Of a DNA stretch of 64,000 nt, positions 23,338 to 27,197 are shown piece by piece (the stretch's first letter is position 1; the number at the start of each line of letters is the position of its first letter). The position numbers and the translations under genes are program-made. The DNA is from Acidimicrobiales bacterium. Its GTDB lineage: Bacteria > Actinomycetota > Acidimicrobiia > Acidimicrobiales > SZUA-35. The stretch is from positions 1,061,516 to 1,125,515 of the forward strand of contig CBDCGK010000004.1 of assembly GCA_965216675.1 (NCBI GenBank), in the 5' to 3' direction. Below the pieces are notes generated by a model. The model was not told the DNA's origin. It saw only the letters and a program-made list of their open reading frames with translations, and did not search any database.

Positions 23338-24371
23338 GCGGCGGACCGGCGACATCATCCCCACAATCTGAACCCACGAACACCGATTGTCTGATTGTCG
23401 GCGCCGGGCTGGCGGGTCTCACCGCCGCCCGGCGTCTGGCGTCAACCGGGGCACGAGTCGTCGTCGTCGACAAGGGCAAGTCGCCGGGGGGACGCCTCGC
23501 CACCCGCCGCATGGGCGACGCCCGCCTCGATCACGGCGCCCAGTTCTTCACCGTCCGCAGCGCCGCGTTCGCGGCCGAGGTGGAAACCTGGATGGAGGAC
23601 GGCGTCGTCGACGTCTGGACCCGGGGATTCTCGACCGCCGACGGCTACCCCCGCTACCGGGCGGTCGAAGGGATGTCGTCGATTGCCCGGTACCTTGCCG
23701 ACCGACTCCAGTCCGACCTCCTCCGGCCGCCGACAACGGTTCAACGGGTCGAGGCCAACGCCGTGCTGGCGGGCGACAACACCTGGTCGGTCACCTACGG
23801 CGCCGGGACCCGGGAACCGGACGACGCGGCGGCGGTGATCCTCACTCCACCTGTCCCCCAGAGCGTGGACCTTCTACGATCCGGCGCGGTGCTCGGGAGC
23901 CCTGTCGACGACCTCGCAGGCGTCGACTACAACAAGGTCCTGGCGGTGCTGGTCACCCTTGACCGCCCGCCCGCTCTTCCCGAACCAGGCGCCGTCCAAC
24001 AACCCGACGATCCGACCTTCACCTTCGTGGCCGACAATCAGGCCAAAGGCGTCAGTGGCGCCCCGGCCGTCACCTTCCACTGCGCTCCCGATCTGTCGTC
24101 GCGCCTCTGGAATCTCGACGATGGCAATGTGGCGGCCCACGTACACGCCGAGATACGACGCCATCTCGGCAGTGCTGCCGTCACCGACGTCCAGATCAAG
24201 CGGTGGCGCTACGCCGGGCCGGTCGAGCCGTTGTCGGAGGCCTGCATCGTGGTTGCGGAATCACCGGGCCCGCTCGTGGTGGCGGGCGACGGCTTCGCCG
24301 GCGCGAAGGTCGAGGGTGCATTCCTCTCGGGAGCCGCCGCGGCCGAGGCGGTCCTGAACCCCGGGTCCTGA
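23334..24371 (+). CDS. renalase-like FAD/NAD(P)-dependent oxidoreductase
   Basis: IVGAGLAG, DKGKSPGGRLATRR, DHGAQFFT, RWRYA, VEGAFLSG. Confidence 0.9.
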   Translation: MSGGPATSSPQSEPTNTDCLIVGAGLAGLTAARRLASTGARVVVVDKGKSPGGRLATRRMGDARLDHGAQFFTVRSAAFAAEVETWMEDGVVDVWTRGFSTADGYPRYRAVEGMSSIARYLADRLQSDLLRPPTTVQRVEANAVLAGDNTWSVTYGAGTREPDDAAAVILTPPVPQSVDLLRSGAVLGSPVDDLAGVDYNKVLAVLVTLDRPPALPEPGAVQQPDDPTFTFVADNQAKGVSGAPAVTFHCAPDLSSRLWNLDDGNVAAHVHAEIRRHLGSAAVTDVQIKRWRYAGPVEPLSEACIVVAESPGPLVVAGDGFAGAKVEGAFLSGAAAAEAVLNPGS

Positions 24372-24537
24372 CCGGTCTGGCTCGACCAACCAGTAGGCCT
24401 TCGGTCGAACTGGTGAAATCCACCTCTTTACGTGGCCGCTTTCATCGAATATCTTCGGCTAATGCCGTTCTCCGGCACACGTCAAAGGGGCTGGGCGCGG
24501 TCCTCCGACGCGGTATGACCACCAACTGAAAAGCTGA

Positions 24538-26307
24538 ATGACTACAACTGAACAGACCTCACGGCTCCTCCGTTTTCGGAGGCCCCGTGACCGCCGCACC
24601 TGTTCGCTTGAGGTTCAAGACATCACCGTCACCACCGACGACAACACGGTTGTGCTCGATGGCTTGTCGCTCGAACTGGAACCGGGCACCAAGACCTGCA
24701 TTGTCGGAACTGACGAGTCGGCCAAGGCCGCGCTCCTGTCATGTCTGACCGGTGACACGAAAGTCGCTTCGGGTGCGATTCTTATCAACGGGACAGACCT
24801 CTCGGTCCTGTCCTCCGCCGACATCGACGACAACCTCGTTCTGATACCACGGGAACCCGCGATCAGACACGGGTCGATCCGCGACAACATCACGCTCGGG
24901 CTGGAGGGGGTTTCCCGCTATCGACTCGAGTGGGCGGTCGACCAGACCGGCATCGAGAGCTTCACCCGGTTTCTCCCACGAGGAATCGACACCGTCATCA
25001 GTGACGGAACCGGCGAGGCCGACGGCCCGGCGACGATCGTCCTGTCGGCCGCACAGCGGCGACGGGTGGCACTGGCCCGGGCGCTGTTGAGAAACCCGTC
25101 GATTCTCATCCTCGAAGAACCGACCACCGACCTCGGAGCCCGGGAGGAGCAGCGGTTCGTCCGATCGCTGGAACGCCTCATCGCCGGACGTACGCTCATC
25201 ACGTTCTCCCGCCGGCTCGTGCTCGCCCGCAAAGCGGACCGGGTTCTGGTGCTGGACAAAGGACGGCTCGTCGGCTACGACGAGGCCTCCACCAAGGGAT
25301 CGGTCTGCGACCACTCCCGTCTGTGGGACAACCGGGCTCCCGCCGGCGACGAGCCGGGTCACCCGACGGCACCGAAGATTCGCCCGACGGTGCGCCTGGT
25401 GCGACCGCAACCCAATCCCTCATCAACACCATGGGGTATCACGGTCGGAGGCGAGATCGCACCGGGCTACGTGGCCTCGGGCTTGATCGAACGGACCGAA
25501 CACGCCGACGTCTGGGCGGCCTGGAGTGCGACGAAGGAGGGTCCGGTCCGGATCAAGATCCCAGCCACCGCCCCGGTCACTTACCATGCCTTCGAGCAGC
25601 TTCAGCGGGAGTTCCAGATCGTCAGAGGTCTCCGTCATCCCGGACTGTCGAGGGCCCACGAGGTCGATCTCGACGCCGAGATGCCCTATGCCGTGTTCGA
25701 GTACATCGACAGCCCCTCACTCCGTTCGCTGATCTCCCGACTGGGAACCGGACTCGATCCGCTCGATGTTCTCTACATCGGGTTCGAACTGGCCGGCGCG
25801 CTCAACTACCTTCATCAGCGCGGTCGCGTCCACCTCGACCTCCGCATCCGTCATGTGAGGACCCGAGCCGACACCATCGTGATCTCGGACTTCACCCACA
25901 GCCGGGCGATCGGATCGACGCTCCCGTCATCTCTCGGCACCGGCAACGGGCGACGAGGTGAGCATCGGGCGACGGCGCCCGAGCAGCGGGCAGGGGCGGT
26001 CGCCCACCCGAAGATGGACATCTACTCGCTCGGGGCGCTCATGCACGGCGCAGCAGCAGGGGCCGTGCGAACCGAGGCGACGCCGGCCGGGAACCGGTTG
26101 ATCCCGTTCTCGTCGTTGATGGAGTCGGCTCCGATCTCACTGACGGAGATCGTCGATCGCATGCTGTCCGACGATCCGGCCGATCGTCCCGACGCGGAGG
26201 AGGTCCTGACCCGGTTCCGCCGGGTTCTTCCTCAATCGCTCTATCGCCCTCGGATCATCGACCTGGAACAGCAGCCCCATCTCCAACTGGTTGTATCCAA
26301 CAACTGA
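24538..26307 (+). CDS. fusion of a degenerate ABC ATPase domain and a degenerate Ser/Thr kinase domain
   Basis: ABC scaffold (GSIRDNI, LPRGIDT, RVALARALLRNPSILIL, ADRVLVLDKGR) then kinase scaffold (LRHP, YLHQRGRVHLD, APEQ, DIYSLG, DPADRP). Confidence 0.85.
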   Translation: MTTTEQTSRLLRFRRPRDRRTCSLEVQDITVTTDDNTVVLDGLSLELEPGTKTCIVGTDESAKAALLSCLTGDTKVASGAILINGTDLSVLSSADIDDNLVLIPREPAIRHGSIRDNITLGLEGVSRYRLEWAVDQTGIESFTRFLPRGIDTVISDGTGEADGPATIVLSAAQRRRVALARALLRNPSILILEEPTTDLGAREEQRFVRSLERLIAGRTLITFSRRLVLARKADRVLVLDKGRLVGYDEASTKGSVCDHSRLWDNRAPAGDEPGHPTAPKIRPTVRLVRPQPNPSSTPWGITVGGEIAPGYVASGLIERTEHADVWAAWSATKEGPVRIKIPATAPVTYHAFEQLQREFQIVRGLRHPGLSRAHEVDLDAEMPYAVFEYIDSPSLRSLISRLGTGLDPLDVLYIGFELAGALNYLHQRGRVHLDLRIRHVRTRADTIVISDFTHSRAIGSTLPSSLGTGNGRRGEHRATAPEQRAGAVAHPKMDIYSLGALMHGAAAGAVRTEATPAGNRLIPFSSLMESAPISLTEIVDRMLSDDPADRPDAEEVLTRFRRVLPQSLYRPRIIDLEQQPHLQLVVSNN

Positions 26308-26339
26308 ACCCGCAACCTGAACCCGCCCGTCGGTGAGAG

Positions 26340-27197
26340 TCAGTCCAAGCCGAACCACCGGCCGATGTCGGTGGCGATCGGCTCGGGGGCCTCCAGCGGT
26401 CCGAAGTGGGTCAAGTCGGGGTAGCGACGCAGCCGCAGGTGTGGATTTCGGCTCGCAACCTCGACCACGGCCTCGACCGGGATTGTCACCTCACCTCCGA
26501 CGGCGAGCACCATCGGCACCTCCATCCCGGCCGCCGCCACGTCGGCTCCGGTTCGGTGTTGTTCGAAGGTGCGGGCCTCGTACTCGGGCGAGCAGGCTAG
26601 TTCCACCGTGCCGTCCGGGAGCTCACGGAACCCGTGCTCGACATAGGCCCGAAGACACCGCTCATCGAGGCCATCGAGTGGGGGCCGCGAACTGTAGCGC
26701 TCGTACACCTCGGCGCGGTCAGCGAAGTTGGGGCGACGCCGCCGGGCCGCCTGCGACATGACCGAGTCGTGGGGCGCATCGACCGGCTCGTCGGGAGGCG
26801 GCAGATCGAACAGGATCGGCTCGAACATCCAGGCCCGCCGAATCGTGCCGGGCACCCTCGCCTCGGCCAGGACGATGACGCCGCCTCCCAGCGAATGGCC
26901 GACCGCCCGGATCGGTTCCGACGGCGACACCACAGCGGCCACGGCCAGGAAATCGTCGACCATCCCCGACCAACGCATATGCCCGTCGTGAGGCGGGTTG
27001 CTGGCGCCGTGAGCCCGGAAGTCGAGAGCGAAGCAGTGAAAGGAGTCGAGCAGGGACGCCGCGATGGGCTCCCAGACCGCGCCGCAGAAACCTGTGGCGT
27101 GGCAGAAGAGCAATGGCGGGCCGTGACCTCCGAAATCGTGAACGGCGACCGAGACACCGTCGGTCGAGGACACTCGTTCGATGATGCGTTCGCTCAC
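26340..27197 (-). CDS. alpha/beta hydrolase
   Basis: HATGF, DFRAHG, GHSLGG, HFGPLE; GTG overlaps upstream stop. Confidence 0.88.
   Translation of the reverse strand: MSERIIERVSSTDGVSVAVHDFGGHGPPLLFCHATGFCGAVWEPIAASLLDSFHCFALDFRAHGASNPPHDGHMRWSGMVDDFLAVAAVVSPSEPIRAVGHSLGGGVIVLAEARVPGTIRRAWMFEPILFDLPPPDEPVDAPHDSVMSQAARRRRPNFADRAEVYERYSSRPPLDGLDERCLRAYVEHGFRELPDGTVELACSPEYEARTFEQHRTGADVAAAGMEVPMVLAVGGEVTIPVEAVVEVASRNPHLRLRRYPDLTHFGPLEAPEPIATDIGRWFGLD

Follow-up and report, generated by a model that had tools for sequence, protein, structure and literature searches.

Architecture of the fusion gene

We analysed a 64,000-nucleotide stretch of DNA (the window) from an Acidimicrobiales bacterium (GenBank assembly GCA_965216675.1, contig CBDCGK010000004.1, positions 1,061,516 to 1,125,515) and focused on one open reading frame (ORF) at 24538–26307, on the + strand like all features below. 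According to Pfam matches, motif reading and a structure model, its 589-amino-acid product (P0001) joins a degenerate nucleotide-binding domain (NBD) of the ABC (ATP-binding cassette) type to a kinase-fold domain. Pfam placed ABC_tran at residues 40–197 (E 3e-16) and Pkinase at residues 325–558 (E 6e-15) and found no ABC_membrane domain in the protein, whose 19-residue hydropathy peaks at 1.32. The best NCBIfam matches were type IV exporters, all well under their cut-offs and covering the NBD portion only. A stop codon lies immediately 5' of the ATG, which is invariant across 21 aligned ortholog upstream regions, and no membrane domain lies upstream of the ORF. The original prediction, made from the letters of the window, had described an intact 589-codon ABC–kinase fusion with no transmembrane domain and no neighbouring permease. 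ORF, Pfam and hydropathy analyses confirmed this description, and the motifs that it quoted are all present as written. The neighbours in the window encode an FAD oxidoreductase, an alpha/beta hydrolase, an S9 peptidase and a beta-propeller protein, and none is a permease.

The structure model, built from a 44-row alignment with side-chain positions inferred from that alignment, shows two folded domains joined by a linker that is disordered (residues 268–292), with pLDDT 80.6 and pTM 0.49 for the whole model. Folding the kinase half from its single sequence gave a pLDDT of 36.5. A complex prediction of the NBD (20–266) with the kinase (294–575) scored 0.00, which is no verdict and counts neither way. 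Contigs from two public runs (one study, possibly the source sample) matched the stretch with 0 differing letters and 0 indels. The GC content at third codon positions of the fusion gene is 0.77, against 0.80–0.87 in six neighbours. The gene is thus less GC-biased than its surroundings, as first proposed, but the gap is mild and lies within the ortholog range of 0.70–0.93. Searches of the ESM Atlas returned generic Ser/Thr kinase clusters only, Rfam gave a single chance-level match over 24200–26600, and a public sequencing-run search for the stretch listed no RNA run.

Distribution and selection

In a word-based search that scored 7,992 candidates, the ranking began with 47 homologs of the same architecture and then turned to plain exporters. 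More remote fusions came from a full profile search, and the total set with loci comprised 70 sequences, which are kin and not independent samples. All titled loci belong to metagenome-assembled genomes of Acidimicrobiales, Acidimicrobiia or Actinomycetota.

We searched 88 genomes of the family. The kinase half was matched in 24 of the 25 genomes of the window's own genus, and the missing case is probably an unassembled locus because the neighbouring peptidase gene is absent there too. The sister genus carries the full fusion in 8 of 13 genomes. One more (G407) has the kinase half alone at the syntenic locus (L165:7499-8722), with no NBD match; three others (G408, G409 and G410) lack the fusion between the NamZ muramidase and hydrolase genes, and in G404 the contig ends at that spot. 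The fusion occurs in one of four genomes of a third genus, and no match came from the remaining 11 genera of the family. A search of 400 other genomes of the class, with only three candidates scored per genome, did not find it (this tally includes the unpublished G275). Among 401 genomes of the order, five matches were obtained: the window's genome, one congener, two kinases of the parent type described below and one ordinary kinase. The range is narrow, a single family of uncultured Acidimicrobiales, and the orthologs are all degenerate and syntenic.

Selection was measured as pairwise NG86 ratios of nonsynonymous to synonymous substitution rates (dN/dS) against five close orthologs. The ratios were 0.15–0.18 for the whole gene, 0.09–0.14 for the kinase half and 0.17–0.28 for the NBD. 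The neighbouring FAD oxidoreductase, hydrolase and peptidase genes gave 0.17–0.28 and the aminotransferase gene 0.05–0.07. The ratio was 0.07–0.23 in the 23 fusion pairs above 72% identity, and no in-frame stop was present in 34 matches. The fusion gene is maintained by purifying selection and is not decaying. The conditions that the original prediction had set for its own refutation did not hold: the orthologs share the degeneracy, and the gene does not evolve neutrally. The gene could still be viewed as a decaying relic: its stem branches are long (0.87 for the kinase, 0.41 for the NBD), it was lost in three sister-genus genomes and reduced to the kinase half in one, and three distant pairs reached an NBD dN/dS of 0.36–0.67, at synonymous sites near saturation. 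This reading is largely refuted by the stop-free matches and the dN/dS values of the closer pairs, and the promoter-like element ahead of the gene is conserved as well.

Degeneration of the NBD

The NBD spans residues 22–266 (24601–25335) and was delimited by Pfam and fold match. Its fold is that of a type IV exporter NBD: ABC_tran scores above its cut-off, and the model matches known exporters at Z 27 (IrtA, Z 27.2, rmsd 2.2, 234 residues; Atm1, Z 26.9, rmsd 2.8, 243 residues). The sequence features of such exporters, namely the Walker A motif, A-loop aromatic residue, LSGGQ, Walker B Asp and H-loop His, are not found as a set, and there is no fused or adjacent transmembrane domain. None of 62 two-domain proteins exceeds 642 amino acids.

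The Walker A remnant GTDESAKA (residues 57–64; 24706–24729) corresponds to GxxGxGKS in the parent exporters. Its Lys is present in 2 of 65 fusions (Gln in 48) and its Gly6 in 3 of 65. The motif is degenerate, as had been claimed, but the window copy still has Lys63 at the position where the family mostly has Gln. In the signature remnant LSAAQ (residues 169–173; 25042–25056), the first Gly of LSGGQ is found in 0 of 68 fusions. The Walker B and D-loop segment, ILILEEPTTDLG (residues 189–200; 25102–25137), was compared by residue counts in 69 fusions: the Walker B Asp remains in 4 (Glu in 58), the catalytic Glu in 55 and the D-loop Asp in 15. The A-loop Tyr is present in 0 of 47 fusions and the H-loop His in 35 of 70. 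Parent-type exporters are canonical at every NBD motif place compared (5/5). The fusion NBDs have also lost their X-loop residues and, behind the Walker A helix, the RFY motif; both couple an NBD to its membrane domain.

In real exporters, degenerate sites remain able to bind ATP and depend on the A-loop Tyr (PMC7756269), so the fusion NBD is degraded beyond such sites. The loss of the A-loop and Walker A residues argues against ATP binding by the NBD, and the role of nucleotide sensor originally suggested is unlikely for this half.

Retained, lost and gained residues of the kinase domain

The kinase-fold domain (residues 297–565; 25426–26232) was defined by Pfam, residue counts, fold match and dN/dS. 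It has the two-lobed Hanks kinase fold, with a model match to PknB (1mru; Z 25.9, rmsd 3.0, 247 residues), and the APE Glu, alphaF Asp and alphaH–I Arg (E482, D494 and R550) are present in 70 of 70 fusions. The window copy also holds all four canonical Hanks residues Lys72, Glu91, Asp166 and Asp184 (K340, E358, D434 and D451). The canonical Gly-rich loop, Ala70, Asn171 and P+1 Gly-Thr/Ser are missing from it: the Gly-rich loop has E318 and T320, and R338, H439 and E475 occupy the places of Ala70, Asn171 and Thr201. R319, and R436 in place of Lys168, are further changes.

We compared the fusions with 49 intact parent-type kinases. Asp166 falls from 49/49 in the parent type to 31/70 in the fusions (Asn in 27, Gly in 6), Lys168 from 48/49 to 0/70 (Arg in 61/70), Asn171 from 48/49 to 11/70 and Gly52 from 47/49 to 3/70. 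Fusions retain Lys72 (61/70), Glu91 (70/70), Asp184 (67/70) and the hinge E121. Their losses relative to the parent type are Gly52, Arg54, Ala70, Lys168, Asn171 and Gly200-Thr201, and the constraints gained are G315, R319, P346, E417, R436, G486 and R561. The P+1 Thr/Ser is lost, with Glu at the Thr201 place in 44 of 50 main-clade members. In the kinase-only derivative of G407, the motif at the DFG place has changed further.

Two signs of kinase degeneracy in the original prediction did not hold up. HLD in place of HRD is inherited, as Leu stands there in 46 of 49 parent-type kinases, and DFT is weak evidence because the residue after DF is already Asp, not Gly, in 38 of 49. The catalytic Asp, listed as kept, is present in the window copy but not conserved in the family. 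The full catalytic triad is kept in 27 of 70 fusions, the window copy included, and the triad together with Asn171 in 2 of 70, so that 43 of 70 members are pseudokinases by the triad rule of PMC12599244. The label "pseudokinase" rests on the family pattern because the window copy retains the whole triad. What was termed a double pseudoenzyme stands as a conserved, doubly degenerate fusion under purifying selection.

These residues allow for a residual or altered enzyme, either a slow kinase or, as in SelO and SidJ, a protein performing another nucleotide-transfer reaction. The whole triad in 27 of 70 family members, the window copy among them, would agree with this, the kinase is the most constrained half, and atypical catalysis is known among bacterial pseudokinases (PMC12599244). 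We find such an activity rather improbable, as position 166 switches between Asp, Asn and Gly in syntenic orthologs, Asn171 has become His, Ser, Ile or Val, and Thr201 has become Glu. Phosphotransfer is unlikely to be what selection keeps because orthologs at the same locus tolerate Asn or Gly at the catalytic base.

The state of the ATP pocket bears on another alternative, a metal-free switch whose kinase half would bind ATP or ADP as STRAD-alpha does, through His439 and the gained arginines instead of Mg, with the resulting shape change controlling a partner. STRAD-alpha uses His at the Asn171 place and an Arg for the cation (PMC4718504); the fusions have His there in 32 of 50 main-clade members and gained Arg at 319 and 436, while K72, E91, hinge E121 and D184 are retained. 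Ala70 caps the adenine, and Phe at its place blocks ATP binding (PMC12721161). Arg occupies this adenine-capping place in 49 of 50 main-clade fusions, which tips the reading toward a blocked pocket; the sister clade, without Arg338, has polar residues there. Gly50 and Gly52 are mostly replaced by residues with side chains, like those of the non-binding VRK3 (PMC4718504), and the NBD has lost its A-loop Tyr and, in nearly all fusions, its Walker A Lys. A switch of this kind is conceivable but unlikely.

Probable origin from an exporter–kinase gene pair

The sister-genus genome G410, which lacks the fusion, encodes a canonical NBD at another locus (L109), where the contig start truncates it; the gene of a separate canonical kinase comes next. 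A search of 401 phylum genomes with this kinase gave 7 matches; an exporter lies directly upstream of 6 (two are frameshifted), and the seventh is cut by a contig end. In metagenomes, an exporter NBD lies directly upstream in 14 of the 15 best-scoring loci, the fifteenth having too little DNA, and in 25 of 80 loci overall, where the others are weaker matches or short. With profiles of the fusion halves, parent-type exporters scored 238–259 bits and generic exporters no more than 217; the kinases of eight parent-type loci scored 182–206 bits, and no other kinase of the host exceeded 120.

Phylogenetic analyses placed 26 fusions in one kinase clade (100/100) that joins eight parent-type kinases, including that of L109 (100/100); some rows of this tree came from sequence search alone, without gene context. 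The NBD tree unites 24 fusions in a single clade (100/99), which lies within a group (99/98) that also contains parent exporters and one host exporter, and a larger quick NBD tree did not resolve the fusions, the parent exporters and the host exporter group from one another (SH 92). Both halves can thus be followed back to neighbouring genes that stand in the order of the two domains. The simplest inference is that the membrane domain was lost before the two genes fused, and the gene likely arose from an exporter–kinase pair in this way. Neither the best 120 matches of the word-based search nor the best 150 of the profile search included an intact three-domain intermediate. Strong membrane-domain matches in G404, G408, G409, G410, G444 and G476 were considered as an intact parent replacing the fusion; this was rejected, since their loci are different ones and the stretch examined around them has no kinase.

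The parent module (L109:1-2062; L121:7188-10808; L181:3403-9245; L184:4193-11935) consists of a type IV ABC exporter, an HLD-type Ser/Thr kinase with a WPxW tail and, at its start in several loci, a small signal-peptide protein with a C-terminal anchor. Two-component genes, as read from the sequence, lie 3' of the module in several loci, and in L184 two exporters flank the kinase. We met no description of this module in the literature, although no dedicated search was made. An intact exporter in G094 (L110:8875-10875) groups with the kinase-linked exporters and has no kinase within the 19 kb examined. In the window's genome, a locus (L125:8466-14796; G000:C4 ~2768465-2774795) contains three glycosyltransferase-like genes, an ABC exporter and a phosphotransferase-like gene, all named by reading the sequence.

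This host exporter (G000:C4:2769414-2771183), encoded in the glycosyltransferase operon, belongs to the same broad family as the fusion NBD. The original prediction had proposed to look for an intact exporter–kinase paralog; no fusion-bearing genome searched has an intact parent-type kinase. The exporter and the descent of the fusion from such a gene pair would suit the suggested dominant-negative regulation of an intact pair, which lacks a target because of the missing kinase. The parent-type kinase was found in one of the 88 family genomes (G410, 476 bits), which is not a fusion carrier at the usual locus, and the next profile matches are the fusions themselves. Close orthologs of the host exporter were seen in 4 of the 32 fusion-bearing genomes of the window's genus and the sister genus, and the X-loop and RFY residues are gone. 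We regard dominant-negative action as highly improbable.

Linker, C-terminal tail and 3' end

The disordered linker (residues 268–292; 25339–25413; pLDDT <50) contains a VRLV/LRLV motif. In strict form, the motif occurs in 27 of 51 main-clade and unplaced linkers and in 0 of 14 sister-clade linkers, and Arg286 is invariant across the 44-row alignment. The C-terminal tail (26233–26307), defined by motif count, ends in LQLVVSNN. Of 56 main-clade and unplaced members, 49 show the pattern [LI][RQKEH][LV][VAI] within their last 14 residues, against 0 of 14 sister-clade members, so the tail motif singled out earlier is conserved, but not in the sister clade.

The tail may resemble the LRVV motif of SspB, a likeness that the original prediction had put forward as speculative. 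The two LxLV motifs could dock on ClpX or another Clp unfoldase, which would make the fusion a protease adaptor or a protease-controlled regulator. A ClpX-like gene in the genome encodes a CSFCGK zinc domain, and the motif is kept in 49 of 56 tails and 27 of 51 linkers of main-clade and unplaced members. They are missing from the sister-clade fusions, the broad motif is not enriched at the C-termini of the genome's crude proteome (13 tail matches, ratio 1.04), and related exporters end in similar words, suggesting that the tail motif may be inherited. Such an adaptor role appears very unlikely.

The last 36 codons (26197–26307) have low synonymous divergence, 0.12 compared with 0.43 in the gene body and 0.21–0.50 in 12 neighbours. 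They include a hairpin of about 15 pairs at ~26197–26233 that occurs in the 7 closest sequences, is missing from 4 more distant ones and has no covariation support. The 3' end may contain the terminator of the convergent hydrolase operon, or some other overlapping element. We also considered a conserved reading frame overlapping these codons and dropped the idea, as none stood out by eye.

Upstream elements and neighbouring genes

A promoter-like element, TTTACG-N17-TATCTT (24427–24455), aligns ahead of most of the 21 orthologs. Of 262 loci, 34 contain the pattern TTTAC[CG]-N17-TA[GT]NTT, and 33 of these 34 are loci of the fusion (some loci are counted twice); its one match in the entire 5.6 Mb genome is at the fusion gene. 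This points to a promoter of the fusion gene's own, and the element is likely to be that predicted promoter, presumably of the housekeeping-sigma type. A second conserved non-coding element, GGC..GGCGC-N10-CGCGGTA (24489–24515; 23 nt 5' of the ATG), ends in CG[CG][CG]GTA and is likewise the sole match in the genome. It is a candidate second promoter or operator, which we assume to resemble a SigB/SigF-type promoter with one mismatch. We found no consensus RNA structure for this second element, and a generic promoter/terminator scan gave no result. A regulon was rejected for both elements, with one genome match each.

The locus order, read in 24 loci as far as contigs extend, is the beta-propeller and FAD oxidoreductase genes, the fusion, the convergent hydrolase gene, the S9 peptidase gene and the aminotransferase gene; no permease is among these conserved neighbours. 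The conserved beta-propeller protein (PF09826; 20779–23337, 852 amino acids), two genes upstream, has a lipoprotein-like N-terminus and an acidic insert. A divergent gene for NamZ (L010:5511-7004 and orthologs), an exo-beta-N-acetylmuramidase with a lipoprotein-like N-terminus, adjoins the fusion in 14 of the 24 loci. NamZ was rejected as an obligate partner, being absent from the window's genome and retained where the fusion was lost.

Proposed function

We interpret the fusion as a non-catalytic scaffold centred on the kinase fold, with a probability of about 55%. Among the roles offered in the original prediction, this is the one that fits best. The kinase fold would be the working core, and the Lys340–Glu358 pair would keep it in an active-like conformation. 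The gained arginines 319, 338 and 436 may fill or rewire the ATP cleft, and Glu475 at the P+1 Thr place would remove phosphotransfer. The core would bind a partner and either hold it or tune it. The likeliest partner is another Ser/Thr kinase of the host or a substrate of one. The ATP-free NBD and the LxLV motifs could serve as accessory binding surfaces. The kinase half is the more constrained half and survives alone in G407. The window's genome has 15 other kinase-domain matches, and placing the partner among these kinases or their substrates is a guess.

Several observations weigh against this interpretation. With K340, D434 and D451 in place, the window copy is not a pseudokinase by the triad rule of PMC12599244, and the family-wide retention of Lys72, Glu91 and Asp184 is compatible with nucleotide binding too. 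At C-spine places, Phe is the one residue that has been shown to block ATP (PMC12721161), whereas the fusions have Arg. No partner gene co-travels with the fusion, and its function may differ between clades because the sister clade lacks Arg338 and the LxLV motifs.

A new class of bacterial signalling hub may also be imagined, in which two enzymes of one operon died together and survive as one protein: a STRAD-like pseudokinase would read the ATP/ADP state, and the LxLV motifs and the empty ABC domain would hand a cell-wall-recycling or kinase-signalling partner to a Clp protease. We think this improbable; if true, it would offer a pseudoenzyme pair directly comparable with a living parent operon. 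Whichever role applies, a membrane-free ABC domain with a dead ATP site that is kept under selection is unusual. The origin of this pseudoenzyme can be traced through intact parent-type pairs, a fusion in two clades, a kinase-only form, outright losses and listable residue changes.

Comparison with known systems

We found no literature description of an ABC NBD–kinase fusion and no paper on Acidimicrobiales pseudokinases, with most subscription papers beyond reach. The term "ABC" never appears in the main texts of PMC12599244 or the bacterial kinase atlas (10.1101/2025.01.12.632604), and neither presents an ABC-fused family there, although unclassified members might be listed in the atlas supplements. 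A kinase-MalT fusion is all that an older survey of kinase architectures lists in the part available (PMC1262709). The atlas defines seven pseudokinase families (ActPs1-3, GLW, DLHK, CP1 and DYD) by loss of the VAIK Lys, which is substituted in all ActPs1-3, DLHK and GLW sequences and in part of CP1 and DYD. The fusions do not share this substitution, as Lys is kept in 61 of 70 and in the window copy. The architecture is undescribed and its origin traceable; its kind, a bacterial pseudokinase scaffold, is already known.

The ATPases of the CP1 and kinase-MalT fusions are STAND-type. CP1 pseudokinases with a COG3899 ATPase (PMC12599244) and the M. tuberculosis kinase-MalT fusion (PMC1262709) are soluble kinase–ATPase fusions too, but their kinase is N-terminal and their ATPase is not an exporter NBD, and CP1 occurs in other phyla. 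The PknF-Rv1747 operon of M. tuberculosis, like the parent module, combines a Ser/Thr kinase and an ABC transporter, with an active PknF and FHA domains in Rv1747 (PMC3138270, PMC3908365). The likeness is by description, and no FHA domain was reported in the single parent exporter scanned.

The degenerate sites of TM287/288, TAP and CFTR resemble the fusion in that the signature, Walker B, D-loop and H-loop of a type IV exporter NBD fold are altered, but they lie in whole transporters and bind ATP tightly (PMC7756269). In contrast, the fusion has no membrane domain, has lost the A-loop and Walker A and mostly keeps the catalytic Glu. It is not part of a whole transporter with a paired canonical site, and no partner exporter is co-distributed with it.

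On the kinase side, the fusion resembles VRK3 in its whole Lys72-Glu91 pair, replaced Gly50/Gly52, predicted filling of the pocket and inverted constraint pattern, and STRAD-alpha in the His at the Asn171 place (PMC4718504). Both are eukaryotic and of unrelated origin, so the analogy concerns mechanism only, and the predicted filler in the fusion is Arg rather than a hydrophobic residue.

Bacterial pseudokinases are few and mostly untested. Among them, the pseudokinase domain of mycobacterial MviN (MurJ), of the ActPs3 family, combines an actinobacterial kinase fold with a transporter-derived part and has a non-catalytic scaffold role like that proposed for the fusion. In MviN the membrane domain still works, and the three triad residues and the activation loop have all been lost (PMC12599244). 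The fusion, by contrast, no longer has a membrane domain, carries an ABC NBD as its partner domain and retains Lys72 and Asp184.

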